Positions 941 to 61,883 of a stretch of DNA of 64,000 bases are shown piece after piece. The position numbers and the translations under genes are program-made. The DNA lies in assembly GCA_041649135.1 (NCBI GenBank), contig JBAZNQ010000001.1, positions 99,037 to 163,036 of the forward strand, written 5' to 3'. The notes beneath the pieces are model-generated. The model worked only from the letters and a program-made list of their open reading frames with translations. It did no database searches and was not told where the DNA came from. Each line of letters begins with the position of its first letter. Within the stretch, counting starts at the first letter, position 1. Source of the stretch: Patescibacteria group bacterium (lineage in GTDB: Bacteria; Patescibacteriota; Kazan-3B-28).

Positions 941-1052
941 GCTAGGCGACAGACTATGTTCTCGCTGCCGATCCCAACCACCGAAAGTCGGTTCTGCGAG
1001 CTGGTTTTTGGCTTGTCATTGTGGCCATAGAACCAATAAGCTATGAACCCTC

Positions 1053-1080
1053 TGGGCGAGCTTTCCAGCTCGCCCTTTTG
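1053..1080 (+). terminator. Rho-independent terminator after rarA
   Basis: gggcgagct-ttcc-agctcgccc followed by tttt. Confidence 0.6.
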
Positions 1081-1148
1081 ATTTTGATGATAAACTTACA
1101 GATAGAGAGTGAAACTATTTTTAAAAAATTGCGGTAACAAACAATCAG

Positions 1149-12252: not shown

Positions 12253-13116
12253 ATGCAGTCACAACCTATGGTAACTGATTGGTGGAGTATTTTTATTAGT
12301 CATCTGACCGGTGGTCTCGTCCAGATGAGTGAAACAGCCGGTTTATTCTGGTCGGGTTTAATTAGTCAATTTTCACTTACCGGATTGCTCGACTTAATTT
12401 TAGTGGCCGCGTTACTCTGGTGGCTTTATCGCCGGTTGCGTCGTAGTGAATTGATCGGTATCTTACCGCGGATTTTCATTTTATTAATTATTATTTTAGT
12501 AGCGCGTATCTTGGGATTTTGGGCGCTCTTTTATGTTGGCGGAGCTTTGTTTATTATCACTCTGTTAGCGCTCTCCGCCTTGTACGCGCCGGAGATCAAG
12601 CAAGTTCTGATTACCGATTTAAAACTTGACCATCATCCACGTGCCACTATCCGTAATGTTAGTACCGCCGATTATCAAACCGCTATCAAGACACTAGTTG
12701 AGGCGCTCGCCGTGCTGACTCGCGCTCACAAGCCGGCTTTAATTGTCATTAAACGAGACAAACCCCTCACTCGGTTAGTTGATAATGGCACCAAGATGAA
12801 TTCGCCTCTACGCGCCGATTTGCTAATTGATTTTTTTGCTAATGGTTCAGTTTTGGGTAAGGGTGCCGCTATCATTGATGGCAACAAAATTATCGGGGCT
12901 GGTTCTACGCTCTTTCGGACCAATGCCCGCATCTTATTTAATCCCACCCATCCCATGATCCAGCGTGCCGCTCGCGAACTTAATGCCGTCATTATCATTG
13001 CCACCAAAACCACTAGCGATATCAACGTTGTGGCAGGGGATAACACTTACAAAAATCTCAATTTGGCCGATCTTTCCAAACTTCTGCAGAACATATTGGT
13101 TTATCGTCGGATTTAA
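12253..13116 (+). CDS. Diadenylate cyclase CdaA-like membrane protein (DAC domain; catalytic motifs appear divergent)
   Basis: Three N-terminal TM helices with LLDLILVAALLWWLYRRLRRSELIG (CdaA-like), then a DAC-like region GKGAAIIDGNKIIGAGSTLF ... IQRAARELNAVIIIATKTTSDINVV. The canonical DGA and RHR appear as DGN and IQR. A ybbR/cdaR-like gene follows immediately. Confidence 0.5.
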   Translation: MQSQPMVTDWWSIFISHLTGGLVQMSETAGLFWSGLISQFSLTGLLDLILVAALLWWLYRRLRRSELIGILPRIFILLIIILVARILGFWALFYVGGALFIITLLALSALYAPEIKQVLITDLKLDHHPRATIRNVSTADYQTAIKTLVEALAVLTRAHKPALIVIKRDKPLTRLVDNGTKMNSPLRADLLIDFFANGSVLGKGAAIIDGNKIIGAGSTLFRTNARILFNPTHPMIQRAARELNAVIIIATKTTSDINVVAGDNTYKNLNLADLSKLLQNILVYRRI

Positions 13117-14313
13117 ATGCGTCTCAATTCTCCCAATATCATGCGCTGGGTAATCCTGATCGCCGCCGTTTTGGTTTGGATCAACATTTACTCATTTCTC
13201 GATCGCACTACGACCATTTCCGCTCCGCTTTTGATCGAAAATCTTCGAAGTGATTTTGCGATTGCCGAACCAATTACGGTTGTTAATGCTACTGTGAGCG
13301 GCGGAATTCGCGATTTTGCCAGTCTGACTGATCAGACTTTTCAATTTACGATCGACGCCTCATCCATTGCCGCTATCGGTCAATACACTCTCGAAATTAA
13401 ACCCAAATTAGTGCCCAAATCGGTCAAAGTGGTTGCGATCGAGCCTCAACAACTGACCGCGACGATCGAATTGGTTGCCAGCAAAATTGTTCCGGTGTCG
13501 GCTCTCTCTCGCGGTATGACTAATGACAAATATAGTGTCTACTCACTAACTGCTGTGCCAAGTCAGGTCCAAGTTTTTGGAGCGCCGTCATTGTTGGCGC
13601 AAATCTCGGAAGCTCGCACTTATGCAGATGTTTCTCGTCGCAAAAATTCCTTCACCGCTCCGGCTTCGGTTGCGGTTGAAGATGCCAATAACCACGTTAT
13701 TCATTCACTCCGAGTTGAACCTAGTAATGTCAAAATCACCGTCGAGATCATCGCTGGGGCTGGGATTCGCAATCTTGGTTTAAAACCATCTTTTATCGGT
13801 GAATTACCGGGTGGTTTTTGGGTCAAAGAAGTAAAATTCGATCCTTCGGTTGTCCAAGTGCGTGGTCCTCAACAGATTTTAGAAGCTCTCTCATCGCTCT
13901 CATCAACGGCTATTAATTTGTCCGACCATCGTAGCGACTTTAACGAACAAGTGGCTGTCGATCTGCCGAGTGGTATCGAAATCGTTGGCGACAACTTGAT
14001 CATGGCACAAATCTTGGTCGGCTCTAGCGAGGGTACTCGTCAATTGGAAATCGTGCCCCAGTATGTTAATGTAACCGAAGGTTTCAGCATTACCGCCACC
14101 AATCCTGCTAGCATCCAAGTTGTGGTTTCTGGCGACCCTAAAGCTGTTAATCAGCTCACTCGCCAAGATATTAAACTAAACCTCGATTTAAAAGGCACTC
14201 TGTCTGGCGCCAATCAAATTGTCCTAACGCCGGCGATGTTCTCCGCCCCTCCCAACATTCAGATCGTTTCCTTCACTCCCGACAAAGTCGAAATCGTCCT
14301 GACGAGACTCTAA
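13117..14313 (+). CDS. YbbR-like (CdaR) domain membrane-anchored protein
   Basis: N-terminal TM, then repeated beta-rich YbbR-like segments; start abuts the cdaA-like stop (TAA-ATG). Confidence 0.55.
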   Translation: MRLNSPNIMRWVILIAAVLVWINIYSFLDRTTTISAPLLIENLRSDFAIAEPITVVNATVSGGIRDFASLTDQTFQFTIDASSIAAIGQYTLEIKPKLVPKSVKVVAIEPQQLTATIELVASKIVPVSALSRGMTNDKYSVYSLTAVPSQVQVFGAPSLLAQISEARTYADVSRRKNSFTAPASVAVEDANNHVIHSLRVEPSNVKITVEIIAGAGIRNLGLKPSFIGELPGGFWVKEVKFDPSVVQVRGPQQILEALSSLSSTAINLSDHRSDFNEQVAVDLPSGIEIVGDNLIMAQILVGSSEGTRQLEIVPQYVNVTEGFSITATNPASIQVVVSGDPKAVNQLTRQDIKLNLDLKGTLSGANQIVLTPAMFSAPPNIQIVSFTPDKVEIVLTRL

Positions 14314-14552: not shown

Positions 14553-15224
14553 ATGAAACTCCTGGCCGCCATTAATGTTGTCCTGGAATTCCTCGGGGCC
14601 TTGATTGTCGCCAAACAAGACAAGGAAGGTCACTTTGCCCGTGTGAGAGAGTTGCTCACACAGCTCAAGACCCTCGACGAGGAAGCTCTTGGTAGACTGC
14701 TTCAACGGATGAACTATGTCCGTGTGATCCTGACCCAGAACACGCTCCTCCCTACCGCAGAAGCCATACAAAGGTTTATTCTGAGCCAAGTCATCCAGAT
14801 CATTGATTGCGATACCGAACTATTTATTCCTGATTACTGGGAGGTGGTCGAGCACCAGAAGGGTGGCAAGCTGGAGTGGAACCCAGAGAAGATTCAGCTC
14901 TATCTCTCGAACGCACAAAATGACAACAGTGACATCGAGGGCCACGAGCTCTGCCGTGAGCTGAAAGGCAAGCGGGTCTTAAACGATTGCGTCCTTGATT
15001 GGCTCATTGCCCATCCCGAGTTCATCCCCGAAGAATGGAAGGGTAAATATATCTTCTTCTGGGGTACCATCTATCGCGACTCGAGTGGCTACTTACGCGT
15101 GCGGTTCCTCTACTGGGACGGTGGCAGGTGGGGCAGGTGGGGCAGGTGGCGCTGGAACTATCGCCGGCTCGACGACAAATTGCACTCCAACGAACCTGCG
15201 GCTGTCCTCGCAGACGCAGCTTAG
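14553..15224 (+). CDS. Hypothetical protein in a higher-GC islet, C-terminal GRW repeats
   Basis: About 52% GC against about 44% flanks. SD aggagactggg before the ATG. C-terminus GGRWGRWGRWRW encoded by 3 perfect ggcaggtgg units. Confidence 0.45.
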   Translation: MKLLAAINVVLEFLGALIVAKQDKEGHFARVRELLTQLKTLDEEALGRLLQRMNYVRVILTQNTLLPTAEAIQRFILSQVIQIIDCDTELFIPDYWEVVEHQKGGKLEWNPEKIQLYLSNAQNDNSDIEGHELCRELKGKRVLNDCVLDWLIAHPEFIPEEWKGKYIFFWGTIYRDSSGYLRVRFLYWDGGRWGRWGRWRWNYRRLDDKLHSNEPAAVLADAA

Positions 15225-15376: not shown

Positions 15377-15562
15377 CGTCATTCTGGCCTGCCTGCCGGT
15401 GGGCAGGTAAGTCCAGCCCCGAAGGTGCCCCGTTGGGGTAGGACGCATCCAGAATCTTCCTCTCGTCATTCCCGCGCCACCTTCTGTCATTCCCGCTCCA
15501 CTCTTCGTCATTCCCATTTCTCTCTTCGTCATTCCCGCGAAGGCGGGAATCCAGAAAAGAAC
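15377..15562. repeat. Composite array of MITE-like palindromic repeats (GTCATTC... family)
   Basis: gtcattctgg...ccagaatc unit, then four tandem tcgtcattccc half-sites ending in the full hairpin gtcattcccgcgaaggcgggaatccagaaaagaaca. Confidence 0.8.
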
Positions 15563-15579
15563 ATAAACTTTTAACTCTT

Positions 15580-15620
15580 CACTCTTCACTCTTCACTCTT
15601 CACTCTTCACTCTTCACTGC
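15580..15620. repeat. Tandem heptamer repeat (ctcttca) x6 directly upstream of the next start codon
   Basis: ctcttcactcttcactcttcactcttcactcttcactcttcact. Confidence 0.8.
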
Positions 15621-15627
15621 CCCCATT

Positions 15628-18045
15628 ATGTCTTACCCCGAATTTATTGTTTTAGATATCGAATCCACCGGCGTCGACTCCAAACACGACGACATTATTG
15701 AATTCTCTGCCGTCAAACTCAATGCTGCAGGTGAAATTATCGATCAACTCGATACTCTAGTTTCCACCAAACTTCTGCCACTTCGCCCACTAGTAGTTGC
15801 TCTGACTGGCATTAAAGATGAAGATTTTGAAGGTCAGCCGAATTTGGAAGCAGTCTTACCCAAAATCGAAGCCTTCTGCGGCGATTTGCCGATAGTGGGT
15901 CATAACATCAGTTTTGATGTTGAATTTTTACATGCCAAAGGGTTGAGCTTGAAAGGCGACTTGCTCGATACGTTGGAACTTGCCCAAACAGTTCTTACCA
16001 AACAACCAGCTTATAGTTTGGAAGGTCTCTGCTGGCGGTTCAATTTTCCCCATCAACCGTCTCATCGCGCTATGGCTGATGTTTTGGCTACTGTTGATTT
16101 AATGAAATTCCTAAGCCAGCAAATTGCCGATCTTAAAGCCGGTACGCGCAAAAAGGTTTTGGATACTCTGCCGGAAAAATCTTGGAACTGGCGTTGGCTG
16201 TTTGCAGAATCTTCTTTTGTCATCCCGAGCGAAGAACGTTCGACGTTCGGAGCGAAGAATCTAGGACAAAGTCCGCACATCACTCCCCACACGAGCAGTC
16301 TGATCGGCAGTCTCAATCAGGCTGAACAATTCTTACCAGACATCAAAACCGCTGAAACCGGCAAAATCAATTTTATTGAAACCCATTTTTCAATTGACCA
16401 ACTGTCCCTTGCCCTAGCTCACGCCATTGCCAAAAAACCGGCTGTATTAGTCGTGCCATTCAACGCTTGGCGAGAAATTGATTGGGAAGCAGTCGGCCAA
16501 GCCCATAACCTTAAACTGGCCGTTCGTGATCGCCAAGAATTTTTCTATCAGGCAGATAGTGAACTGGAATTGGCCAAATCTATGCCGTCCATTTCCGCTA
16601 CCGAAGCAAAATTGATCACCAAAGTTATCTTGTGGCGCAACGAATGGGGGAGCGACCCGTCAAAATTGTATCTGGTAAATGATGAGCTCTATCAATGGGA
16701 ACAAAAATTTGCTCCCATTGAAGTAAAAAAATCTCAACTTCCCGAACATGAAAAAGTTGATCTAATTATTGCCACCACCAGTTCCGTATTAGAGTTGGAA
16801 AATTTGGCAAGATACAATATCATCGTGCTTGATCCATTGAGTGTCGAGGAATCAGCGATGCGTATTAAATCTCGCACTCTGTCGTTAAATTACTTTAGCG
16901 CACTAGTTTCAAGTCGTCGGGATTTTGTACATCTCCAGATTCGTCCCAAAGATGTCAAACTGGCAGATTCATTATTCAAAATTCTTAACGATGTTAGTAG
17001 CAAACTTGCGGCTTTGAGCCCCATGTTGGTGGCGTGGTACGCCGCTAATCCGCCCAGCAATGTCTTTGACCGCAATACCGAACTCTCCGGTGTCAACATG
17101 ACTGATGAATTGCGCAGTCAGCTTGATCTGATCATCGAAGACTTATCGCAATATCTTGGTGTTATCATTGATGCTAAATTGCCCAATTCTAAATCACAGA
17201 TCGAACATACTGAAAAATTGATTATTCATTTAAAGGCTCTCGAAACAACGGATCCTAGCTTTAGATATTTCCTCAACGCGATCGAAAATCGATTCTATTT
17301 GGATATTCTTCCCGCTCATCCAGATTTTTCACTACTAGAGCGAATTTTAACAGATAGCAAATCCTGTACCGTGTTAGGCGCTGGTTTGTCCGTTCAGGGC
17401 AGGTTCAATTATTGGCACCAATCATTTGGTGAATTTAATAGTAAAGTGCTCAAAGACGATACCCCATTGGAATTATTGTTAGTGAAAGACTTGCCGGAAG
17501 GTGATGACTATCTGGAAGCGATCGGTAAATTTTCTAGCCAGATGATCGCCAACAATCCCTATTCACTCGTTTTAACTGGTTCCGCTTATGATACCGAAGA
17601 GCTCTTTGATTGGTTGTTGGCTCCCGTTACGGAAGCTGGGATCGCTCTCTCTAGCGCCAACACAACCAAAGCATTGGAGAAATTACCTGACCTAGTTGGC
17701 GCCAATCGGCATCTGGGAATTGTGGCTTACTATTGGTGGCTGGAACGAGCTCGGTTGTATTTACCAAATTTTGATTTGCTCCTGCTCGGCAAAATTCCTT
17801 TCGATCCCAACAGCCGACCGCAAGCCAAAGTGATGCAAGGGGATAATAACGGTTTCGATAGCTATACGATCCCGCGCACCACAATGAAACTCAAGGAGGT
17901 GCTTCATACTGCTTCTTTAATGAATTTCAAAACTCTAGTTTTAGCCGACAGTCGATTGGTGAAAAAAGATTATGGCGAACGGATCATCGGCTCCCTCGAA
18001 GGCTTCGTCGTCATTCCCCAAACTAGCAAAGAACTTCTCGGATAA
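15628..18045 (+). CDS. DnaQ-like 3'-5' exonuclease domain fused to a large DinG-like C-terminal region (helicase motifs not recognisable)
   Basis: N-terminal DEDDh motifs: VLDIESTGVD (Exo I), GHNISFDVEFL (Exo II), HRAMADV (Exo III). No Walker A seen in the 600-aa C-terminal part. Contains an in-frame MITE-like insert at 16219-16264. Confidence 0.55.
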   Translation: MSYPEFIVLDIESTGVDSKHDDIIEFSAVKLNAAGEIIDQLDTLVSTKLLPLRPLVVALTGIKDEDFEGQPNLEAVLPKIEAFCGDLPIVGHNISFDVEFLHAKGLSLKGDLLDTLELAQTVLTKQPAYSLEGLCWRFNFPHQPSHRAMADVLATVDLMKFLSQQIADLKAGTRKKVLDTLPEKSWNWRWLFAESSFVIPSEERSTFGAKNLGQSPHITPHTSSLIGSLNQAEQFLPDIKTAETGKINFIETHFSIDQLSLALAHAIAKKPAVLVVPFNAWREIDWEAVGQAHNLKLAVRDRQEFFYQADSELELAKSMPSISATEAKLITKVILWRNEWGSDPSKLYLVNDELYQWEQKFAPIEVKKSQLPEHEKVDLIIATTSSVLELENLARYNIIVLDPLSVEESAMRIKSRTLSLNYFSALVSSRRDFVHLQIRPKDVKLADSLFKILNDVSSKLAALSPMLVAWYAANPPSNVFDRNTELSGVNMTDELRSQLDLIIEDLSQYLGVIIDAKLPNSKSQIEHTEKLIIHLKALETTDPSFRYFLNAIENRFYLDILPAHPDFSLLERILTDSKSCTVLGAGLSVQGRFNYWHQSFGEFNSKVLKDDTPLELLLVKDLPEGDDYLEAIGKFSSQMIANNPYSLVLTGSAYDTEELFDWLLAPVTEAGIALSSANTTKALEKLPDLVGANRHLGIVAYYWWLERARLYLPNFDLLLLGKIPFDPNSRPQAKVMQGDNNGFDSYTIPRTTMKLKEVLHTASLMNFKTLVLADSRLVKKDYGERIIGSLEGFVVIPQTSKELLG

Positions 18046-18075: not shown

Positions 18076-18292
18076 AGATCTCTTGGCTATCCGGAAGAAT
18101 AGCAGTCCCAACCATCGCCGTCCAACCCGCCGCTGGAGAAACCCAGCCTGAAGGCGAGTAAGACAAGGAAGCATCCTCCGAAGATGCCCCGCCAAATCCT
18201 TAGCAGCAAGGTACACCTCCACACGATAAAACTGCGATCAATATATCGTTTTTTGCGCTTCTGGTCAACAAAGTCAGGATATAGTGCTTATG

Positions 18293-18321
18293 TTGACAAA
18301 ATGCTCATCCTATGCTACAAT
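18293..18321 (+). promoter_or_regulatory. Consensus sigma70 promoter (TTGACA-17-TACAAT) followed by no ORF
   Basis: ttgacaaaatgctcatcctatgctacaat; perfect -35, near-perfect -10, 17-nt spacer. Downstream is structured noncoding sequence. Confidence 0.6.
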
Positions 18322-19044
18322 GAAATAATTTGGTAACCCCTGCAGTGTGCTTTGCTCTACTGCAGGGCCGACGAATCTTTGAAAATTCACCTGTCCAGCT
18401 CGCATAGCTTCATGACAAGCTTTGTTAGCAGGAAGAGTAGGGGAATGCGAGATATCACTCCCCCCAGTGGTGTCTCGCATTCCCTTACTGTCCCGTATCA
18501 AAACTAAAATAAAATTTAGTGTTTTTGTACCTTAGATGAAACAATATTCCCCGCCATTCCTATAGTGGTTTGGAGAACAAGACAGTCGAAATTGCAAAAT
18601 GGCATCATTGCCGGCTGATCTCTCGAAACTAGCATTGGAATGGAGGGGCGGGACGGGAGGTGAACCCTTCTTGTCCCCCTGACCGTGCCAAAGTTATTTA
18701 ATTTTGGGCCCGCTGATCAGGGGGACTTTTTTGACCCCTCGGGGTCAACCCTCCGTAGCGTTATCTATTTCGAGAAGAGGATAAATATCCTAATTCGAGA
18801 AGAGATGTACGCGTAGGACGGGTAAGTATCATTGATTTATGTCCCCCCGAGGGGATTACCAAATCAACCATCAGGGGGACTTTTTTATGCCCATATATCA
18901 GAATTTCTTGCACTATACTGAACGGCCGTTCAGTATATTGTATTGCACTAGTTTGACCCGATGGAGGATATGGGAAATAATCAAACCAGTAGCGGGGGAC
19001 ATTTTCTCCGCTCGTAACTTATAAATCGGTGCCGGAGGTACACC

Positions 19045-19494
19045 ATGGGTTGCGGTCACGAGCAGACACGCAGGTTTGAAGAGAACACCACGTTGGCTGG
19101 CTTTGGTATGGCAATGTTCACATTTCTTACGCTCATCCAGACCAATGGAATCACGGCCGAGAACTTTGATGAGTTTAAGTCTAACGTGTTGGCTAGGCTT
19201 GCCGAATATGGCAATCAACTCGGTTTCGGTGACCTCTTTAAACCTAGCGCCAAGACGGAGAGTGAAACAGCTGCCCTAAGTCACCAGTTGGGTTTATGTG
19301 GACCCCCTGTACCGCTGTTTCGTTGTCATCTGCAACAGCTCTATCGGCTGCTGAAACGTTCGCAGGAACCACGGACACAACAGGGATACTACGACTTAGG
19401 GTACGAGCTGGCAAAATTACTTCAGGATATCAACAATGAGATTACCGCTCTTCAGCAAGCGCGGGACAAGAGGGAAAGCTCTAGCTGTTCCTGA
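19045..19494 (+). CDS. Hypothetical protein (higher-GC islet)
   Basis: 149 aa; followed by a strong terminator at 19508-19545 (gccgctgacgg...ctatcagcggc + ttttt). Confidence 0.45.
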   Translation: MGCGHEQTRRFEENTTLAGFGMAMFTFLTLIQTNGITAENFDEFKSNVLARLAEYGNQLGFGDLFKPSAKTESETAALSHQLGLCGPPVPLFRCHLQQLYRLLKRSQEPRTQQGYYDLGYELAKLLQDINNEITALQQARDKRESSSCS

Positions 19495-19696
19495 AGTGTG
19501 AACGGGCAGACGCCAAATGCCGCTGACGGTTAAACTATCAGCGGCATTTTTATACCCCAAACCGTTTTTTTGTCATCCTCGGGCTTGACCCGGGGATCCA
19601 GACAAAAACAACAAAAAAGCCCATTTTCAGAAGATTTTTTACTCTCTAAAATCACCTATAAACAGCCAAAAATCGGCTCTGGGAGCAGAAAAAGTG

Positions 19697-19725
19697 TTGA
19701 CAAAAAATTAGGCTTGGAGTATGCT
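19697..19725 (+). promoter_or_regulatory. Sigma70-like promoter (TTGACA-17-TATGCT)
   Basis: ttgacaaaaaattaggcttggagtatgct. Confidence 0.45.
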
Positions 19726-19739
19726 CAAACTGTTGATGC

Positions 19740-19976
19740 GGGGGCGCACACTACAACTCGAAGACACTTTGAGGAGAGAGTCTGTGGCACCCGAAGCTTC
19801 GGGGCACGTTTTGTTTGCCGGCTTAGCCGGTCAGGATGATAGCGGAGGTCTGCTACTGTCATCCGGATAACAACATGGATACTAGTTAGCTTTAAACAAG
19901 CGGCTGGGAGATCTCTGTTCTCAAGGATACTTATATCCTTTCAGAAGAGATATCTCTTGGCCGCTTTTTTGTTTTT
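19740..19976 (+). ncRNA. Candidate small RNA (promoter to terminator, about 235 nt, no credible ORF)
   Basis: Hairpins gcacccgaagcttcggggc and gccggcttagccggt; ends in the long hairpin 19900-19963 + ccgctttttt gtttttt. Confidence 0.3.
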
Positions 19977-20202
19977 TCGCTCCCTGTCATTGCGAGGAGC
20001 GAGAGGGGAATGAGCGACGAAGCAACCTCATCATTTGTCGCAGGAATAGTGGAGAGGAGAGAGTGTTGTTCGGAAGCCGGCTACTAAATAATTATTTTTT
20101 GGCCCCTTGGTCTTCCGAGCTAACTCATCTCCACCATTCCCTCGATAAGCTGATTGGAAACAGTTAGTGAATCGGGAAGCAAATTGAAAAGGGAGGTGGC
20201 GT

Positions 20203-20745
20203 ATGGCCACCAAAACAGAAGAAGAGACAGTAGTAGTGGAGTGGGGGTTGGTGACTGGGTCACCAACCACCATTAAGCCCCGCATATTCGTGCGGGTGGC
20301 GAGCAACGGGAAGTCAGGGTTGTCGTCTCATTTTAGCGACGGAAGTCGTCCGACCCCCCCATCGGATTTGGGGAAGCGCCTCGAGCGCGTCGCGCGCGAG
20401 GTGCGAGGCCTTGGCCTCGGCGCCGAGGTCGTCGACGGCAAGGTTGTTGTCGACGGGCTGGTGTATCACAACACCATCCCCAACGGCCAAACGTTGGGGG
20501 TGGACGCTAGCGGACGACCCTACCTGACCGCCAACTCTCCCATAGTGGGAGAGCTGGCAGGACGGTTACTGCCGCCCTGCTCCGAGTGGGTAGAGCTAGG
20601 GGAAATTAGAGGAGCCTACTACGGCTCCGACGGTATGAGCATTGGCCAGCCCTTGCTACACACGGTCACCCTCTCCAACGGGGAGAGGGTATTGTTGGCT
20701 ATAGGAGGGGATATGGCCGACCTGACCATCTTCCCCCTTCCATAG
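20203..20745 (+). CDS. Hypothetical protein, strongly GC-rich (about 62%)
   Basis: Strong SD gggaggtggcgt-ATG; codon usage and GC differ sharply from the core genes. Confidence 0.5.
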   Translation: MATKTEEETVVVEWGLVTGSPTTIKPRIFVRVASNGKSGLSSHFSDGSRPTPPSDLGKRLERVAREVRGLGLGAEVVDGKVVVDGLVYHNTIPNGQTLGVDASGRPYLTANSPIVGELAGRLLPPCSEWVELGEIRGAYYGSDGMSIGQPLLHTVTLSNGERVLLAIGGDMADLTIFPLP

Positions 20746-21047
20746 CCTTTCCCTTTTCCCCGCGAGCATATGAGCCGCTCGCGCACCAAATCAAGCCGAA
20801 GCCGTGGCGGCCAAGTAGTCCACGGCGCTGGAGAAATCCAATGAAGCTGAACCTTTGGCCCCCTCTGCTCTTTCAAACAGAGGGGGCAGGGCACCTATGC
20901 CCAGAACTTCACCGCTGACAGGAAAAGCGTCAAGTGAAGAATAGGTGGGTGGCTCCCGTAACAGCCATTCCTCGTAAACTGTGTAGTTTGCCTGATGAGT
21001 CCAAAAGGACGAAAGGAATATATATAAAATAATTTAATAAAAATATT

Positions 21048-22094
21048 ATGAGTAATCAAGATTTGAATCCAGAACAAAATCGAGGCGAAATCGGGACTTC
21101 ATCTATTCAGTCAGAAGTTGACGGTACAATGGAAGTTACCCCAGAAGCCAAGGCTAACGATCCCGAAATTCAGCCCAAAATTGAAGGAAGTTTTGTGGTG
21201 CTTGATCCTCGTCCTCAAAGCTTAGACGCCATGATTGCATTAGTGTCTGCTACTCCAACTCTAGGTATCGAACTGACCGTCCCCGAAATTGCTAAACATT
21301 GTGTCGGCAATATTGACCCCCAACATAGTGAAGGGAAAAACATTTCTGCAATTGAAGCAGTCTCCAGCCCAGATTTTGAAATTCCTACTCCCGAAGTCCA
21401 ACTTGCAACAGTTCGGGCCGATAATGATGCTATCGGAGCTATGGCAGTCATTGGTTTGCGTCGAATTGGTGTCGAGCTTTCTGATGAAACTATGGTGCGG
21501 ATTGCCCGCATTGCTACCGGCGATAAAGCCAGAACCGGCAAATGGCAACCCGAAACCCGTTCCTTTGACGATCGTGATTGGGATTATGTCGGATTAGCTC
21601 GAATAGTGGCTGATTTTAAAAAGCCAGTTGCCGAACGTGTCCAACTAATGGCCGATTGGCTAATGACTGGCACTTGCGAAGGTAGTGACACTGCCATCGA
21701 CATCGTCAAACTTGAGTTGGCCGAAGCCATCGCTAAAACCGATGTTTGGGTGGAAGGGAGCGTTGCCCAAGTTAACGGTGAACATCGCGGGGCTATGGCC
21801 ATAGGCTACGAACAGGCTCCCGTTGTCATCGCCGCAAATCCCAACTTTAAAATTGCGGGTGGTGAACCTCATCTGAAATACACAGTCGGTCAGTGGAGTG
21901 CTGGCTATGCCGATCTTAAATCAGTGCTAGTAGAACTTCAGGCCCTAGAACCAGGTTGGGGCGGTAGCGACACCATTATTGGCTCTCCTCAAGGCGAATC
22001 TAGCCAACTCACAATGGAGCAGATTCTAGAAATAGTCGCTAAACACACAACCTTCGACGAATATAGATCAGAAGAAGACCAGATCATACTCTGA
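21048..22094 (+). CDS. Hypothetical protein (348 aa)
   Basis: Long ORF after an AT-rich promoter region; no recognisable motifs by eye. Confidence 0.45.
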   Translation: MSNQDLNPEQNRGEIGTSSIQSEVDGTMEVTPEAKANDPEIQPKIEGSFVVLDPRPQSLDAMIALVSATPTLGIELTVPEIAKHCVGNIDPQHSEGKNISAIEAVSSPDFEIPTPEVQLATVRADNDAIGAMAVIGLRRIGVELSDETMVRIARIATGDKARTGKWQPETRSFDDRDWDYVGLARIVADFKKPVAERVQLMADWLMTGTCEGSDTAIDIVKLELAEAIAKTDVWVEGSVAQVNGEHRGAMAIGYEQAPVVIAANPNFKIAGGEPHLKYTVGQWSAGYADLKSVLVELQALEPGWGGSDTIIGSPQGESSQLTMEQILEIVAKHTTFDEYRSEEDQIIL

Positions 22095-22190
22095 CTAACA
22101 CGCCGTCTCTCCGATCGAGAGGTTCGGGATATTAAAGCTGGGTCAAAGATTCTCGGAGTACGTGGCATCTCATGGAAAGAGCTACATAGG

Positions 22191-22781
22191 TTGCTACTTG
22201 AGGGGAAAGTGAACCGGGATACTGCAGAGTTTGCGGTCATTCAAGAGGAAGAAAAGCTGAAAGATACCCATCCCGAACCACCTGCCGGTACAATTGCTCT
22301 CTTTGATGGTAGTGAATTTGTTGACTGTGATAATGCCGTTTCTCTGCGACATCGGTTGGCAAACCGATTCGGAGAACTGGTAGTAGAATTTATACTTTCA
22401 CCGGACGACATCTCTCGCAGCCAGGGTATATATACCTTCAGGGATAGTTGGGGGCTAGATCCTAAATACACAGAAGTAGAGCCGGAGGTTTATGCGAGAG
22501 AGACGAAAGCAGTCGGAATAAGAGGTATATATGCCAGTTATAACGACATACCCCTTTCACCCGAGACTCTAGTAGAACAGTTGTTAGAATTCGTAGATGT
22601 TGGTCTAGATAAAGAAATATTAAAACATTCTGGTAGAGAAATATTGTCCTTGTTGCACTCGATGTGGTGGAATAAGGACATCACGCCCGAAGAATTCTAT
22701 GACTTATATGAATTCTTATCAGGTAAAGCAGAAGAAATAATTCGGCGTTCGGGTGGCTGCAAGCTAGACGAGCCCAAGTAG
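22191..22781 (+). CDS. Hypothetical protein (196 aa)
   Basis: ORF follows the previous gene on the same strand; the true start may be internal. Confidence 0.4.
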   Translation: MLLEGKVNRDTAEFAVIQEEEKLKDTHPEPPAGTIALFDGSEFVDCDNAVSLRHRLANRFGELVVEFILSPDDISRSQGIYTFRDSWGLDPKYTEVEPEVYARETKAVGIRGIYASYNDIPLSPETLVEQLLEFVDVGLDKEILKHSGREILSLLHSMWWNKDITPEEFYDLYEFLSGKAEEIIRRSGGCKLDEPK

Positions 22782-22816
22782 CTCTTCGACAAAGAACAAT
22801 AATCAACCAACTTTAA

Positions 22817-22948
22817 ATCTCCTCTTTTGTGCCGACAACGGAATGAGATTTGGAATGCGATTTTTATCCGCAAGGATAAAATCTCTCTCCTCGAGATCGC
22901 AAACTAAACCTCTTACTAGACACCAGTTGTCGGCACAAAAGAGGAGAT
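22817..22948. repeat. Perfect 23-bp terminal inverted repeats flanking an 86-bp structured core (tiny MITE or structured RNA)
   Basis: atctcctcttttgtgccgacaac ...(86 nt with nested ttttatcc-gcaa-ggataaaa hairpin)... gttgtcggcacaaaagaggagat. Confidence 0.7.
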
Positions 22949-23109
22949 AGACTGATAAAGCACATTGCCAATTAGTAAAAACGATTCCTTAAAAGCTTTT
23001 GAGGGCGGTATTTTGTGGATTAGCCAAGACTAGCCCACAGTAGTCCGCTCTCAATTGTGAGAGTAGGAGTGTATTCATGACTGCACTCCATAATTTCGGC
23101 TAGAAAGTC

Positions 23110-23499
23110 ATGAGTTCTAGTCGATTTTTCGTGAAGGAGACTAAGATGGTTGAGGCGATGATTAAGCTGGTTCGCCCTCAATTAGAGGGCCATTCAGACC
23201 CACTAGCCCTGTGCCAGTGGGCCGCCTTCAAAGTGGCCGAGGGGGTAGTAGCTACCACCAAAGCCAATTGGGCAACTTTCAAAACATATCCGTCATTGGA
23301 CGGATATACAATGGGGAAGTTACTCTTGCTGGTAGTCGCTGGCAAGGGCGAAGATTTTGCGGAAGAAGCTGGATATCTGTCAGAGTTGGCGATTTATGGC
23401 CCAAAAGGAGGGGAGGGAGCGTGGGTTGCCAGCTACTTGCTAGAATGCTATGAAGCACTCGAACTGATAGCTGACGCTCGCCACCTTTGGGTGGCATAG
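23110..23499 (+). CDS. Hypothetical protein (129 aa)
   Basis: ORF followed by terminator aaggcccgccg-caa-ggcgggcctt at 23519-23548. Confidence 0.45.
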   Translation: MSSSRFFVKETKMVEAMIKLVRPQLEGHSDPLALCQWAAFKVAEGVVATTKANWATFKTYPSLDGYTMGKLLLLVVAGKGEDFAEEAGYLSELAIYGPKGGEGAWVASYLLECYEALELIADARHLWVA

Positions 23500-23751
23500 A
23501 CACACCTGTAACTTTCAGCACAAGGCCCGCCGCAAGGCGGGCCTTTCACTTGTCCAAACGCCCATGGTCATACATAAATAATTTCGCCATTAGATGAACG
23601 ACCGTCCAGTATATTGCGAACATTTTAACCTCTATATGTCAAGTGACCATTCCTCCATTCCCCATTGGTTAGATTGGTGTAATCGGAAAAATTGATTAGA
23701 TTTGTCCCCATCCTCTAGATACTAGATGCTAAATGCTAGATACTAGTAAGT

Positions 23752-24114
23752 ATGGACAACAGCTATTTACCGGGGATAGGAATTGCGACTGGGATGACAC
23801 TAGCGGCGTGGTTGTTAGTGTTATTTTATTTTGATCCAACCACTTCTGGCGTTCCCGGTATCACTTTATTTTTTATCAGTCTAGCGGCTACTTTAATAGG
23901 TATATTGATTTTAATTTTCAATTATCTCCGCTATCGTTTTGCCAAAACGCCCGCCTCATTTGGTGTTACCATCAGGCAGGCTGTCTTGTTAGGGCTGGCC
24001 GTCTCGGGTATCCTACTATTGTTGGCTCTGGACAAGCTAAATTGGTGGAACGGGGTCGCCATCGTAGTGGCTGGTATAGTTATTGAATCCTATGCGCTGA
24101 TCAAACCGGAATAA
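23752..24114 (+). CDS. Small membrane protein (3 TM), hypothetical
   Basis: 120 aa, hydrophobic; preceded by ctagata/ctagatg tandem repeats. Confidence 0.45.
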   Translation: MDNSYLPGIGIATGMTLAAWLLVLFYFDPTTSGVPGITLFFISLAATLIGILILIFNYLRYRFAKTPASFGVTIRQAVLLGLAVSGILLLLALDKLNWWNGVAIVVAGIVIESYALIKPE

Positions 24115-25242: not shown

Positions 25243-25263
25243 ACTGTCACTTCTTGCTTTCTC

Positions 25264-25507
25264 TGTCATTCCCGCTCCACCTTTCGTTGTTCCCACCTCG
25301 CTCTTCGTCATTCCCGCGAAGGCGGGAATCCAGAAAAGAAAAAAGAACAACCCACAAAATGTCTGCTTATGTCTACATTCTTGCCAGCAATAAAAATGGC
25401 ATCGAGCATGGAAAATAAGAATCATTGAAGAGCAGAACCCGCAATGGAAAGATTTATTTCAAGAAATTTTAATTTAATGTCTGGATTCCCGCCTACGCGG
25501 GAATGAC
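25264..25507. mobile_element. Palindromic element carrying an internally deleted GIY-YIG gene remnant (degenerate copy of the 39.4-kb element)
   Basis: Left arm tgtcattcccgc...gtcattcccgcgaaggcgggaatccagaaaag and right arm ctggattcccgcctacgcgggaatgac. Between them, 25359-25477 encodes MSAYVYILASNKNG fused to ...QNPQWKDLFQEILI*. This is the N- and C-termini of the GIY-YIG protein, joined at an AAAAATGG microhomology. Confidence 0.75.
25359..25477 (+). pseudogene. GIY-YIG nuclease gene remnant (internal deletion)
   Basis: The first 14 codons and last about 20 codons are colinear with the CDS at 39515-39802; the middle about 170 nt is missing. Confidence 0.7.
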
Positions 25508-27852: not shown

Positions 27853-28473
27853 CTAGTCGCTAGGAAAGTACAAGTCCAACTGCGCCCAAACGCAGTCGCT
27901 GTCCCGAGCAACTAGTGACCAACCATAGTAGAGTTGCAGGTCAGCCTTGGTGCTGAAATGAAAGGTAATGGCCGGCCCCAAATTGCTACTGACTCGACTG
28001 TCGTCGGCAAACTCACCGGAGAACACACCGACAACGGACAAGGTTGCATCTTCTCCGGCCAACGCATCCCATTGTGCTTGCTCATAAAAAGAGGTCTTTT
28101 TGCCGTTGGCGAACCTGATGCTTGTCATGGCCCATCCAAAACGACCATCAACCTTTCCTTGGAGTTTAAGCCCAGTATCCTCGCCATCGCGGAACATCAG
28201 AATGACCCGGGGTTGGACTTTAAAGTCTTCCCCCCAGCTCACTTGTGGCAAACGCCAACCGATATCAACCCCGTCCATGTCGGGGCTCCAGTCGAATTGC
28301 CAAGACGCTTGACCATCTGGCACCACCAGTCGGAGGTTGTGACTTGTTCCTCCGTTCTCTGGCGAGATGTAAGTCAAGTCCTCCACGACAACCGTACCAG
28401 CCATCACCGGGCTGGCAATCGCCATACACAGCACTACTACCGCAACTGCGGCAGCCACTAACCATCGTGGCAT
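27853..28473 (-). CDS. Secreted hypothetical protein (higher GC, about 56%)
   Basis: SD aaggagg 7 nt before ATG (MPRWLVAAAVAVVVLCMAIASPVMAG signal peptide). The ORF extends to 28548, but the internal start is favoured. Confidence 0.5.
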   Translation of the reverse strand: MPRWLVAAAVAVVVLCMAIASPVMAGTVVVEDLTYISPENGGTSHNLRLVVPDGQASWQFDWSPDMDGVDIGWRLPQVSWGEDFKVQPRVILMFRDGEDTGLKLQGKVDGRFGWAMTSIRFANGKKTSFYEQAQWDALAGEDATLSVVGVFSGEFADDSRVSSNLGPAITFHFSTKADLQLYYGWSLVARDSDCVWAQLDLYFPSD

Positions 28474-28678
28474 TTCGCATTCCTCCTTCTTGTACTTCCT
28501 AGTGGTCAAAGGACATCCCCCAACCACCGTCGCATCGTACTCTGACAATCAGCTTCCAGTCAAGCTTTTTGGCTTCTCCCAAAACTTTGCTTTTAACGCC
28601 AAGCTAAGAGAATAATCCTAAAATCTAAATTTGAAAAACCCTCGGTCGATTTCGACCGAGGGTTTCATTGTGGTCGGC

Positions 28679-28774: not shown

Positions 28775-29020
28775 AACGTAACCTCCTCCTTTTTACCACC
28801 GTAGTTAGGAAACCTATTCCAACCACTTGCCATTCTATCTCAACCCCGCTCCCAGTCAATTTTCCACTGTCATTGCGAGGAGCCCAGAGGTGTCGAGGGG
28901 CGACGCGGCAATCTACTTTTTGTCATATCCAAAATCTTGCTCCATAGGATAAAATCAGGTACAATTGAGGTAGCAATTTCGCCCCTAAGGCGACTTTCCG
29001 TATGGTCTTAATTACCTGTC

Positions 29021-29110
29021 ATTCCCGCGGAGGCGGGAATCCAGAAAAGAACAGAAAAATGTTTTTGTTTCTGTCTGGATCCCCAATCAAGTTGGGGATG
29101 ACGACTAAGA
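29021..29110. repeat. Full-length two-hairpin MITE-like element upstream of gyrB
   Basis: gtcattcccgcggaggcgggaatccagaaaagaacagaaaaatg tttttgtttctgtctggatcccc-aatcaagtt-ggggatgac; the right half is an imperfect reverse complement of the left. Confidence 0.8.
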
Positions 29111-29125
29111 AAAGTTTTATTACCA

Positions 29126-31174
29126 ATGCCTGACGACAATAAAAAAACTAGCGGTTCCTACGGTGCAAAAGATATTCAGGTCCTAGAAGGGCTTGAGCCA
29201 GTTCGCAAACGCCCCGGTATGTATATCGGCTCCACCTCGGTGGAGGGTCTTCACCATATGATTTGGGAGGTGGTCGATAACTCTATTGATGAAGCCATGG
29301 CCGGTCACGGCACGATGGTGGAAGTTATTATTCACAAAGACGGCAAGGTAACCGTGATTGATGATGGTCGCGGCATCCCAACCGAGATACATCCTCAAAC
29401 CAAGAAGTCCACCCTTGAAACTGTTTTAACCACTCTTCATGCCGGTGGTAAGTTCGGCGGCGAAGGTTACAAAGTTTCCGGTGGTTTACATGGTGTGGGC
29501 GTGTCAGTTGTCAACGCCCTGTCTGATTTTATGCGGGTAGAAGTAACCCGTGATGGCAAAACTCATGCCCAAGAATATTCCAAAGGTATCGCCACCAGTT
29601 CAGCCAAAGTGATCAACAAAGATGTCAAAGGACATGGTACAAAAATAACTTTTCATGCCGACAAAACCATCTTTGATGACAACGAAGGGTACGAATGGAA
29701 AACCGTTCTCGAACATTTGAAACAGCAAGCTTATCTCACCAAAGGCGTTTTTGTAAAAATTCACGATGAACGTTCGGGCGAATCGCAGGAATTCAAATTT
29801 GAAGGCGGAGTGCAGTCATATGTCGAAGATTTAGATAAAAACAAGACTCCGCTCTTCACTCCACCATTTTATATCGACAAAGAACGCAACAATGTCCAAG
29901 TTGAATTGTCGATTCAATACACGGAAGATTTTAATGAAACGCTCAAAGCTTTTGCTAATAATATTTACAATCCCGAAGGCGGAACTCACGTAATTGGTTT
30001 TCGTACCGCGTTAACTCGCATTTTAAATGCTTACGCTAAAAAAACGGGGATTATCAAAGAAGCGAAAGATGCTTTATCGGGCGACGATGTTCGCGAAGGT
30101 CTGACCGCCGTTATTTCTGTCAAACTGGCGAATCCCCAATTTGAAGGTCAGACTAAAGCCAAGTTGGGTAATGCCAATGTTCGGACTGCCGTCGATGCGG
30201 TAATGTCCGATTATTTCAATAACTACCTTGAGGAGCATCCTTCAGAAGCTCGTCGGATTATCAGTAAGACCATGTTGGCTGCCAGAGCCCGCCTAGCGGC
30301 GCGTCAGGCGCGTGAAACGGTACTGCGCAAAGGTATCCTCGAAGGTATGACCCTGCCGGGGAAACTAGCCGACTGTTCCAACCGAGATCCATCCAAATCA
30401 GAGATCTTCATTGTCGAGGGTGAGTCTGCCGGTGGTTCCGCCAAAAGTGGACGTGATCGTCAGTTCCAAGCTATTTTGCCTTTACGTGGGAAAATTTTGA
30501 ACGTAGAAAAAGCTCGGCTGGATCGCATGTTATCTTCCGAGGAAATTAAAGTTTTGATCATTGCCCTTGGTGCCGGTATTGCTGAACAATTCAATGTTGA
30601 TAAAATTCGTTACCATCGCGTAATTATTATGACTGATGCCGATGTTGATGGTGCGCACATTAGAACTTTGCTTTTGACTTTCTTCTACCGCTACATGCGC
30701 GCCATTATCGACCGCGGCTATCTCTATATTGGCCAGCCGCCACTGTATCAGCTTAAGTCTGGCAAAGATGTGCGCTGGGTTTATTCTGACGAAGAGAAGG
30801 ATAAAGTAATGAAAGACATGCAGGAAGCCGCTGCCAAGAAGAAGGAAGGCAAGAAAGCTAAGATGGAAACCGATGACACCGCCATCGTCATTCCCGCGGA
30901 GGCGGGAATCCAGACCGAAACAGAAACCATCGCCGAAGATTTGTCATCTACTAAAGGTATTGCGATCCAACGTTACAAAGGTCTTGGAGAAATGAATCCA
31001 AGCCAACTTTGGGAAACCACTATGGATCCTGCTAATCGGATTATTCACCGTGTTACTGTTGATGATGCCGAAATCGCTGATGACATCTTTTCCACCCTCA
31101 TGGGAGACGACGTTGCCCCCCGCAAGAAATTCATCGAAGATAACGCCCAATTCGTCCAGAATCTGGACGTGTAA
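29126..31174 (+). CDS. gyrB: DNA gyrase subunit B, carrying an in-frame repeat-derived insertion
   Basis: GHKL ATPase motifs (EVVDNSIDEA, GLHGVGVSVVNALS), TOPRIM (EGESAGGSAK, IMTDADVDGAHI), C-terminal QRYKGLGEMN. Codons VIPAEAGIQ at 30886-30913 are encoded by gtcattcccgcggaggcgggaatccag. Confidence 0.9.
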   Translation: MPDDNKKTSGSYGAKDIQVLEGLEPVRKRPGMYIGSTSVEGLHHMIWEVVDNSIDEAMAGHGTMVEVIIHKDGKVTVIDDGRGIPTEIHPQTKKSTLETVLTTLHAGGKFGGEGYKVSGGLHGVGVSVVNALSDFMRVEVTRDGKTHAQEYSKGIATSSAKVINKDVKGHGTKITFHADKTIFDDNEGYEWKTVLEHLKQQAYLTKGVFVKIHDERSGESQEFKFEGGVQSYVEDLDKNKTPLFTPPFYIDKERNNVQVELSIQYTEDFNETLKAFANNIYNPEGGTHVIGFRTALTRILNAYAKKTGIIKEAKDALSGDDVREGLTAVISVKLANPQFEGQTKAKLGNANVRTAVDAVMSDYFNNYLEEHPSEARRIISKTMLAARARLAARQARETVLRKGILEGMTLPGKLADCSNRDPSKSEIFIVEGESAGGSAKSGRDRQFQAILPLRGKILNVEKARLDRMLSSEEIKVLIIALGAGIAEQFNVDKIRYHRVIIMTDADVDGAHIRTLLLTFFYRYMRAIIDRGYLYIGQPPLYQLKSGKDVRWVYSDEEKDKVMKDMQEAAAKKKEGKKAKMETDDTAIVIPAEAGIQTETETIAEDLSSTKGIAIQRYKGLGEMNPSQLWETTMDPANRIIHRVTVDDAEIADDIFSTLMGDDVAPRKKFIEDNAQFVQNLDV

Positions 31175-39430: not shown

Positions 39431-39439
39431 GCCTCCCTG

Positions 39440-39833
39440 TTCGTCATTCCCGCTCCACTCTTCGTCATTCCCGCGTAGGCGGGAATCCAGAAAGAAAAAA
39501 TAACAATCTATGAAATGTCTGCTTATGTCTACATCTTAGCCAATGGCAAAAATGGGACCTTATACACCGGCGTGACAGTACCATTGGTCAAGAGGGTGTA
39601 CGAACACAAGAGCAAATTTATTTCTGGATTCGCTGAACAATACAACGCAACCGACCTAGTCTATTACGAAATATTTGACGATATAGAAAACGCTATTCTT
39701 CGCGAAAAACATATCAAAAAATGGCATCGAGAATGGAAAATTAAATTGATCGAGAAAAATAATCCACAATGGAAAGATCTATACCAAGAAATTTTAGTTT
39801 AATGTCTGGATTCCCGCCTTTGCGGGAATGACG
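39440..39833. mobile_element. Full-length palindromic element carrying an intact GIY-YIG nuclease gene; candidate autonomous parent of the MITE family
   Basis: Left arm ttcgtcattcccgctccactcttcgtcattcccgcgtaggcgggaatccagaaag; right arm tctggattcccgcctttgcgggaatgac; 288-nt ORF in between. Confidence 0.7.
39515..39802 (+). CDS. GIY-YIG nuclease superfamily protein (YhbQ/UPF0213-like, 95 aa)
   Basis: MSAYVYILANGKNGTLYTGVTVPLVKRVYEHK (GIY-N10-YTG motif with a conserved R and E); a remnant paralog at 25359-25477. Confidence 0.75.
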   Translation: MSAYVYILANGKNGTLYTGVTVPLVKRVYEHKSKFISGFAEQYNATDLVYYEIFDDIENAILREKHIKKWHREWKIKLIEKNNPQWKDLYQEILV

Positions 39834-61838: not shown

Positions 61839-61883
61839 ACTCGTCGTATCTTGGTGTTAACCCATATGTAGGAGGTGAACGTG

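Follow-up and report, generated by a model that had tools for sequence, protein, structure and literature searches.

A lineage-specific insertion of about 5 kb carrying orphan genes, beside a conserved structured RNA gene in a Patescibacteria genome

How did a block of five unassigned genes of uneven base composition come to lie between an exonuclease gene and pheS in a Patescibacteria genome? The block is part of a 64-kb stretch of the 521-kb contig JBAZNQ010000001.1 (hereafter the window; positions are those of the window, read on the forward strand unless marked (-)) from a Patescibacteria-group metagenome-assembled genome, where it corresponds to NCBI locus tags WC553_00670 to 00700. A first-pass annotation, made from the sequence alone, had placed five open reading frames of 149, 180, 348, 196 and 129 aa here (ORF1 to ORF5), and the list of reading frames agrees with it in both sizes and positions. 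The same annotation had offered transfer from a high-GC host, a degraded prophage or a defence islet as explanations. We found that the block is an insertion of about 5 kb (approximately 18733-23737) relative to five related genomes, and the evidence supports its being acquired DNA that is carried by this organism's lineage only. The explanation that we prefer, and hold to be probable, is that of a non-autonomous, lineage-specific flexible islet of about 5 kb at a spot prone to rearrangement.

Evidence for insertion comes from the flanks. When the 805-aa protein of the upstream exonuclease gene was used as a query against species-representative genomes, four related loci were recovered at 72-78% identity, and the three that reach downstream have, after the exonuclease gene, about 700 bp of non-coding DNA and then a gene for a 120-aa membrane protein, pheS and pheT. 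The metagenome relatives L021 and L023 run exonuclease gene, RNA gene, membrane-protein gene, pheS and pheT with no block, and this compact order is found in five relatives altogether (L002, which is a complete 560-kb chromosome, L003, L004, L021 and L023); the neighbouring protein is 70-79% identical among relatives. The same interval, from the exonuclease gene to the membrane-protein gene, measures 5.7 kb in the window, and the non-coding DNA of the relatives aligns to 18292-18733 and next to the sequence from 23738 onward. Looking for the block in closely related genomes had been proposed as a check, and it is absent from all five relatives with conserved flanks. Its placement between the exonuclease gene and pheS stands, and direct abutment on these genes does not, as a conserved RNA (about 18328-18732) intervenes on the left and the membrane-protein gene (23752-24114) on the right. 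In independent assemblies of other samples (from ENA, JGI and Logan) the same sequence was found at 99.8-100% identity, which rules out an assembly chimera; the block is fixed, and all assemblies of this organism have it in essentially identical form. The upstream gene (15628-18045) had been called DinG-like, a name that its Pfam match, to the RNase_T exonuclease domain only, does not bear out. That domain is N-terminal, the remaining roughly 640 aa gave no helicase-domain match, and the NCBI name of the product is 3'-5' exonuclease.

The same comparison could also reflect an ancestral block that was deleted in the relatives in the course of genome streamlining. The codon usage of ORF3 is native and its family extends across the phylum, and the block contains repeat types of this genome, all of which would suit an old resident. 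Five relatives, however, share the tight junction between RNA and membrane-protein gene, so that several identical and precise deletions would be needed; moreover, the composition of ORF1 and ORF2 is non-native and the duplicated junction sequence marks an insertion. A single gain needs fewer events than five precise losses of the same kind and agrees with the composition; insertion is therefore favoured, and we regard deletion in the relatives as highly unlikely.

The left edge of the insertion has a complicated history. Local alignments to L021 and L023 delimit a rearranged junction zone (18733-18925) directly after the terminator of the RNA gene. Within it, a 17-nt exact direct repeat (18716-18732 and 18870-18886) bounds a small insert or duplication (18733-18878), which is separate from the main insert and retains what is left of the ancestral 'TATACTTGAAnTATGTCC' gene start (18827-18844); a further hairpin resembling a terminator (18841-18886) carries an exact copy of ATCAGGGGGACTTTTTT. 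The ancestral post-terminator sequence (in L021, GTGCCCAAATCTCAGGGCATTTCAGATATACTTGAAATATG) recurs at 18879-18925 and at 23738-23751, the latter being the right junction, with a remnant of the ancestral ATACTTGAAnT sequence. Two or three degenerate copies of the ancestral junction sequence can be counted, and the main insert therefore spans about 18926-23737. At its left end lies a 30-nt palindrome (18911-18940) that contains copy 1 of a 22-nt direct repeat, TGAACGGCCGTTCAGTATATTG (18919-18940), and copy 2, TGAACGACCGTCCAGTATATTG, lies at 23595-23616. A reading of the palindrome as a LexA/Cheo box (GAAC-N4-GTTC) was discarded, as the window contains the motif three times where 1.0 would be expected, a count that 9 of 100 shuffles also reach. 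These junction features show repeated rearrangement at one spot and do not identify the mechanism behind it.

A shorter version of the islet, again behind the same RNA, is found on L022, a metagenome contig of 2.5 kb, and the comparison shows that the block is a mosaic of an older non-coding scaffold (promoter piece, 5' leader and terminator), an inner segment and the rearranged left junction. The first scaffold piece (19648-19701, 81% identity with L022) has the -35 box of a promoter at its end, and before it comes a repeat of a type characteristic of this genome (19571-19600, GTCATCCTC...GGATCC). The second (22960-23055, 81% identity) is non-coding and resembles a 5' leader, with two hairpins whose pairing, read by eye, is apparently kept through different sequence in L022; the third (23515-23565, 80% identity) is a terminator hairpin (GGCCCGCCGCAAGGCGGGCC). 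Between the same leader and terminator, in the slot of ORF5, L022 has an unrelated orphan of 283 aa (400-1251 (-)) without a Pfam domain, at 58.8% GC and 0.67 GC at third codon positions (GC3) against a background of 42% GC. Relative to L022, positions 19702-22959 of the window, with a small RNA (sRNA) candidate, ORF2, ORF3, ORF4 and a hairpin, form an extra nested segment of about 3.3 kb. The 22-nt repeat is not found in L022.

A single integrated element, the remnant of a prophage or integrative element that entered in one site-specific event and later lost its integrase, would account for part of these observations, with the 22-nt repeats as att-like or arm-type sites. The imperfect repeat occurs at only two places in the window, near the two block ends, against a chance expectation of 0. 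Islands commonly target tRNA and tmRNA genes, and the insertion at the 3' end of a small RNA gene, with terminator and target sequence duplicated at the left end, resembles such targeting; phage-like contigs also carry ORF3-family genes. Against a single element, the second copy of the repeat lies within the block, about 125 nt short of the right junction, the composition is strongly unequal between genes, and L022 has the internal non-coding pieces alone and no 22-nt repeat, which argues for piecemeal assembly. Scans with Pfam, PHROGs and NCBIfam revealed no integrase, transposase, excisionase, or phage structural or replication gene in the block. None of the five proteins matched Pfam, NCBIfam, PHROGs (noise only, E > 0.04) or PADLOC, tblastn against 50,697 phage records gave nothing for ORF1 to ORF5, and in IMG/VR the ORF3 family alone was found, with no similarity for ORF1, ORF2, ORF4 or ORF5. 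As a prophage, then, the block offers no hallmark gene and, the ORF3 family in IMG/VR excepted, no similarity to known phage genomes; of the degraded prophage suggested earlier there is left the presence of that family on phage-like contigs, which speaks for it weakly and indirectly. As a genomic island it offers deviant composition in ORF2 and ORF1 and not in ORF3, no mobility gene, the 22-nt repeat near both ends and the duplicated junction sequence. A single decayed prophage is thus a possible origin that fits the mosaic pattern less well, and we consider a single integrated element unlikely.

Composition sets some of the block genes apart. The GC contents of ORF1 to ORF5 are 50.0, 60.6, 47.8, 44.0 and 51.3%, and their GC3 values range over 0.39-0.71 and their codon-usage scores over 0.00-0.38; the reference is a set of 28 long reading frames outside the block, with 45.3 +/- 2.6% GC, a GC3 of 0.447 +/- 0.053 and codon-usage scores of 0.26 +/- 0.08 (minimum 0.08). 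ORF1 and ORF2 score about 0.0, under all 28 reference genes, and ORF4 and ORF5 score low yet inside the reference range, while ORF3 (0.38) fits the genome. ORF2 (20203-20745; 180 aa) is the extreme case, and its description as GC-rich relative to core genes is accurate (60.6% GC and a GC3 of 0.71 vs about 45% and 0.45), as is that of its strong Shine-Dalgarno sequence (SD; GGGAGGTG, 4 nt before the ATG). In 300-nt windows over 20250-20700 the GC content is 62-64%, against a window-wide baseline of about 45%. At the three codon positions GC amounts to 0.62, 0.49 and 0.71, and the order GC3 > GC1 > GC2 is that of a real coding sequence from a GC-rich source and fits a genome of about 60-65% GC, a composition foreign to the genome studied here. 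The gene is identical in independent assemblies.

Such a gene invites the idea, put forward in the first-pass annotation, that ORF2 and perhaps other GC-rich orphans were transferred from a high-GC bacterial host to an epibiont. The GC content and the genuine coding pattern of ORF2 would fit, as would four more reading frames in the window with GC3 values of 0.60-0.67 (14553-15224, 27853-28548, 53894-55375 and 61875-62210), the first of which is also missing in relatives. ORF2, however, matched only itself among 5.8 billion proteins, well-sampled high-GC phyla included, in a word-indexed search that remote homologues, and hence a distant donor, can escape; plasmid, phage and IMG/VR collections held nothing either. 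With no homologue there is no donor to name, and a host from a well-sampled phylum is unlikely. The four other GC3-rich frames lack Pfam domains and resemble neither one another nor ORF2. Two of them (14553-15224 and 53894-55375) occur in the protein collection, in clusters of one or two sequences (two for the latter), and the exact sequences of 27853-28548 and 61875-62210 are not in it. Neither an epibiont lifestyle nor the identity of a host is indicated by the data, and we find host-to-epibiont transfer improbable. The scattered GC3-rich orphans without homologues speak against simple transfer of this kind and for a pool of mobile genes that has escaped sampling.

The first of these frames, 14553-15224 (+), encodes 223 aa with a GC3 of 0.67, lies between ybbR and the exonuclease gene and is followed by a repeat array (15463-15610). 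In L002 and L003 ybbR abuts the exonuclease gene, so that with 14553-15224 this lineage has a second insertion of its own, only 4 kb away from the block. The N-termini encoded by 27853-28548 (-) and 53894-55375 (-) look like those of secreted proteins or lipoproteins; the third of the outlying frames is 61875-62210 (+).

ORF3 (21048-22094; 348 aa, with residues 1-45 predicted to be disordered) belongs to a family of which 293 homologues were found at E <= 0.01 (clusters of 90% identity), all without a Pfam domain and with a usual length of about 300 aa. The family spreads across Patescibacteria, including Moranbacteria, Saccharimonadales, Woesebacteria and Parcubacteria, among others. Invariant residues include N88-x-D90-P-Q92-H93, T121-x-R123-x-D125-x-D127, D159, R197, K277, E301, W304-G305 and S313-x-Q315-G316, and G306 is conserved in at least 90% of sequences. 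An AlphaFold2 model built on the family alignment (mean predicted local distance difference test (pLDDT) 87.9, predicted template modelling score 0.81) has the two-domain DHH plus DHHA1 fold. Its top Foldseek matches in PDB and BFVD are all DHH-family proteins (E 9e-7 to 1e-3, probability 0.9-1.0): the pAp phosphatase 8a8k, TM1595, RecJ2, NrN and NrnA in PDB (E from 3e-6, probability about 1.0), and phage AR9 NrnB with several DHH phosphohydrolases in BFVD. Compared with NrnA/NrnB nanoRNases, 8a8k, the TM1595 pGpG/pApA phosphodiesterase (5o1u), NrN (9lqb) and RecJ, the ORF3 model shares two domains linked by a long helix; it also has an invariant DxD followed two residues on by a glycine (G130, in at least 90% of sequences), which resembles DHH motif I, and a Gly-rich WGG motif in the C-terminal domain where DHHA1 has GGGH.

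Several findings tell against this assignment. The literal DHH motif is lacking: ORF3 has no DHH triad and instead an invariant NxDPQH N-terminal to DxD, which suggests a rearranged or permuted catalytic domain, and it has GWGGS in place of GGGH. It matches neither DHH (PF01368) nor DHHA1 (PF02272), with no Pfam or NCBIfam match at E <= 1, it has no sequence match to any PDB chain, and a profile of 50 family members found no DHH chain in PDB. Global template modelling scores (TM-scores) of the model to DHH enzymes are low as well (0.22-0.35), which may be attributable to domain orientation. We therefore file ORF3 as DHH-like by predicted fold and outside the DHH sequence families; the earlier statement that no motif could be assigned has to be amended for this gene, and it holds in that none of the five matches a known family. 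Going by what NrnA/NrnB, pAp phosphatase, pGpG/pApA phosphodiesterases and RecJ do, we infer that ORF3 may be a metal-dependent phosphoesterase whose substrates would be short oligonucleotides or nucleotide second messengers. Shortly before the exonuclease gene come a gene for a diadenylate cyclase (DAC domain) and ybbR/cdaR (12253-14313 (+)); the organism thus makes cyclic di-AMP, and the DHH-like ORF3 lies 7 kb downstream. With at least 293 Patescibacteria proteins that match neither Pfam, NCBIfam nor PHROGs, a DHH/DHHA1-like predicted fold and a rearranged motif set, the family is worth characterising as a predicted new nucleotide or oligonucleotide phosphoesterase, since these organisms rely on scavenged nucleotides and cyclic di-AMP synthesis is encoded nearby.

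Family members occur between rpsP-KH and trmD (L008), before aspS, serS and secA with two orphans (L005), among small orphans with TrmB-type regulators (L025 and L027), and beside an EcoRI methylase and GmrSD with an integrase nearby (L026). They are also found on five IMG/VR contigs and on L024, a phage-like metagenome contig, and their neighbours on phage-like contigs include an Erf-like annealing protein, a phage zinc finger, DUF932 and a tail/virion protein. Relatives of ORF1, ORF2, ORF4 or ORF5 were found beside none of 13 other ORF3-family genes. The family thus appears to be accessory and often tied to mobile elements, and its recurrence on phage-like contigs and in variable regions would make nucleotide salvage or the removal of signal nucleotides, in the service of a mobile element or of its host, its most likely role. 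In L008 (8001-9846) the ORF3-family gene stands with a gene for a 140-aa PaaX_M (Cas2-like) protein between the KH-domain gene and trmD; the pair splits the rpsP-KH-(rimM)-trmD cluster, whose genes usually lie together, and has the look of another small insertion into a housekeeping operon.

The structural matches bear on the idea of a defence or counter-defence islet, in which ORF3, together with ORF4, would degrade immune nucleotide signals in the manner of a ring nuclease or of NrN and the orphans would be its partners. The ORF3 fold matches nucleotide phosphodiesterases and NrN (a DHH enzyme with a crystal structure that includes SAM-AMP), one family member has the EcoRI methylase and GmrSD as neighbours, and on phage-like contigs signal degradation would presumably be anti-defence. 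On the other hand, none of the five proteins matched any PADLOC-DB family at E <= 1, as a result of which the suggestion of a defence islet loses its ground, and no sensor or effector gene and no CRISPR or CBASS component was found in the block or its flanks. Most other contexts of the family are housekeeping genes or orphans, and a housekeeping nanoRNase or pAp phosphatase would fit the fold equally well. We therefore judge a defence function of the block very unlikely.

ORF4 follows ORF3 in the same frame. The TGA stop of ORF3 (22092-22094), seen in three assemblies, is followed by C (UGA-C), and the extended frame of ORF4 comprises 228 codons (22095-22781), of which the annotation uses those from TTG 22191 (196 aa) or GTG 22209 (190 aa). 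A phmmer search of 1.84 billion representatives returned three ORF4 relatives only. Homology to the best of them, P0137 (780 aa), starts at codon 4 (22104), 29 codons before the TTG; in the supposedly untranslated part 9 of 18 residues are identical, and the pairwise E value improves to 2e-36 with the extension. Five residues invariant among three ORF4-family sequences also sit upstream of the annotated start, and 22095-22190 contains no ATG, GTG or TTG. ORF4 is therefore, as judged by homology, mis-annotated, its conserved coding sequence reaching up to the in-frame TGA of ORF3.

Being in frame after the UGA, with conserved sequence three codons on, ORF4 may be expressed as a fusion by low-level UGA read-through, start at a non-canonical codon (ATT 22131, 8 nt after GAGAGG), or represent the decaying half of a gene split recently by a nonsense mutation. 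UGA followed by C is reportedly the weakest termination context in E. coli. A UGA-C between two in-frame conserved regions, the second without a canonical start, resembles the leaky read-through that yields the A1 protein of phage Qbeta, with the difference that here read-through is purely inferred and a nonsense mutation or the ATT start fits equally well. An ORF3-ORF4 fusion was not seen in any other genome. The annotation error thus raises the question of read-through versus pseudogene. An alternative code (UGA = Gly) was rejected, as pheS, pheT and the exonuclease gene are intact under table 11 with lengths as in the relatives, and upstream homology in L014 was put down to chance, the gene there having a proper SD and ATG. 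The AlphaFold2 model of ORF4, made from a three-sequence alignment, is unusable (pLDDT 42). In P0137 (locus L015), the only long relative of ORF4, residues of about 340-640, after the ORF4-like domain, show DLDG, LDTGD and FDHH by eye, motifs that canonical DHH enzymes have. If real, they would make P0137 a 'Rosetta stone' that joins an ORF4 domain to a DHH domain, which is a lead only; a canonical DHH domain in this C-terminal half was not confirmed by Pfam (E <= 10), phmmer against PDB or hhalign to the ORF3 family.

The left neighbour of the islet, outside it, is a conserved structured non-coding RNA gene (18293-18732), which consists of a conserved promoter (18293-18321, TTGACA-N17-TACAAT), an RNA of about 405 nt (approximately 18328-18732) and an intrinsic terminator (18673-18732). 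All seven loci, namely the window, L002 (12750-13125), L003 (7762-8068), L004 (2044-2350), L021 (862-1226 (-)), L023 (3535-3910) and L022 (1602-1945 (-)), have the RNA, at lengths of about 330-410 nt. A 54-nt hairpin with a CCCCCC loop is invariant across the seven lineages, and the variable central stem and the terminator stay paired via compensatory changes. Sixteen of 70 pairs have changed on both sides, against 7.6 in shuffles (none of 500 reaches 16) and at most 8 in slid controls, counts that are somewhat inflated as the structure was predicted from the same alignment. Rfam 15 gave no relevant match for the window region (E <= 5) or for three relatives (E <= 2), including its models for T-box and other leaders or riboswitches, tmRNA, RNase P, SRP and 6S, and ARAGORN detected no tRNA or tmRNA at the locus. 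Part of the interest of the locus is thus a highly conserved, covariation-supported RNA outside Rfam families. In the relatives its terminator is followed by about 45 nt and then the ATG of the membrane-protein gene; as the RNA stands directly before the membrane-protein gene, pheS and pheT in five relatives, it could act as a leader, and in L022 that order is not found. A T-box leader for pheS was rejected (no Rfam match, no readable UGGN/specifier logic and no pheS after the RNA in L022). The variable stem measures 88 nt in the window (18552-18641) and 48 nt in L012 and L013 (362-411), which are otherwise 99.7-99.8% identical and belong to the same organism.

How, then, might the block have arisen? 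As a flexible islet it would have entered directly 3' of the conserved RNA terminator, about 10 nt upstream of the genes for the membrane protein, PheS and PheT, and more than one event may have built it, with at least two or three separate insertions or duplications. A poorly sampled mobile gene pool of Patescibacteria, in phages and other elements, would have supplied the cargo, rather than a cellular host, and the interpretable module would be ORF3, possibly with ORF4. Several points weigh against this account. The multi-event history depends on one short sister contig, L022, whose RNA has another upstream neighbour, so that the locus may differ and orthology is uncertain. The fully native codon usage of ORF3 may mean that it is an old resident gene and not recent cargo, the orphan status of ORF1 and ORF5 refers to family, cluster, phage and IMG/VR searches, and no recombinase, transposase or clean target-site duplication was found that would explain the entry of the DNA.

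Genomic islands have been described as frequent in Patescibacteria (PMC12455944). Like the flexible islets of streamlined genomes, those of that report included, the block is a few kb of lineage-specific DNA of atypical composition that encodes mostly hypothetical proteins, situated between conserved housekeeping genes by a small RNA gene and missing in relatives; it differs in its very small size of about 5 kb without integrase or transposase, in the conserved scaffold that it shares with L022 under other cargo, and in its target, which is no tRNA or tmRNA gene but the 3' flank of a structured RNA of no known class. Islands at tRNA or tmRNA 3' ends are matched in the position right after the RNA terminator, in the duplication of the terminator 3' end and target, and in the different cargo of a second lineage, whereas here the RNA is negative in ARAGORN and Rfam, there is no tyrosine or serine recombinase, and the repeats are short and degenerate. 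Since such islands have already been reported as common in Patescibacteria, the block adds little as an islet; it is ordinary in kind, with some modestly interesting details. A bolder reading would make the RNA 3' flank a dedicated cassette-exchange site, where lineages exchange unrelated GC-rich orphans within the scaffold without a recognisable recombinase, the RNA being a new class that marks or serves the site and the DHH-like family being joined to its partner by programmed UGA read-through. We mention it as a long shot.

The remaining features of the block are smaller. ORF1 (19045-19494; 149 aa), an orphan and a singleton cluster with a codon-usage score of 0.00, has an SD (GGAGG, 19034-19038) and a terminator of hairpin and T-run (19515-19553). 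ORF5, also an orphan, more likely starts at 23146 (23146-23499; 117 aa; SD AAGGAG at 23134-23139) than at the alternative ATG at 23110, which gives 129 aa; neither it nor ORF1 has phage or IMG/VR relatives. That each gene has its own SD and terminator had been claimed for all five; no SD or terminator is visible for ORF3 and the annotated start of ORF4 is not that of the conserved coding sequence, and the claim is thus correct only in part. One of the sRNA candidates proposed earlier (about 19728-19985) has a TTGACA-N17-TATGCT promoter (TTGACA 19697, TATGCT 19720-19725), a strong terminator of long hairpin and T-run (about 19899-19979, z = -5.2) and no Rfam match.

Between ORF4 and the ORF5 leader lies a 132-nt hairpin element (22817-22948), which had been described as a mini-element with perfect terminal inverted repeats and does have perfect 23-nt arms (22817-22839 and 22926-22948). 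It folds at -63.7 kcal/mol (z = -10 vs shuffles), occurs in one copy in the window and was not found in IMG/VR. An integron attC site, which had come into question for the hairpin and for the exchange of cargo on a common scaffold, was rejected, as the AAC/GTT at the inner arm ends depart from RYYYAAC...GTTRRRY and there is no IntI integrase in or near the block, and so was an IS200/IS605-type end, given the motif misfit and the lack of a TnpA or TnpB gene.

Short GC-rich intergenic hairpin repeats (GTCATTCCCGCGAAGGCGGGAATCCAGA and relatives) are scattered over the window, at 15463-15610, 25262-25351, 29016-29084, 30885-30931, 39419-39512 and 51632-51678, and occur inside the block at 19571-19600 and about 19985-20030; their presence there suggests that part of the block has been resident for some time. 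Some of these repeats adjoin duplicated mini-ORFs starting with MSAYVYILA (25335-25399 and 39491-39555).

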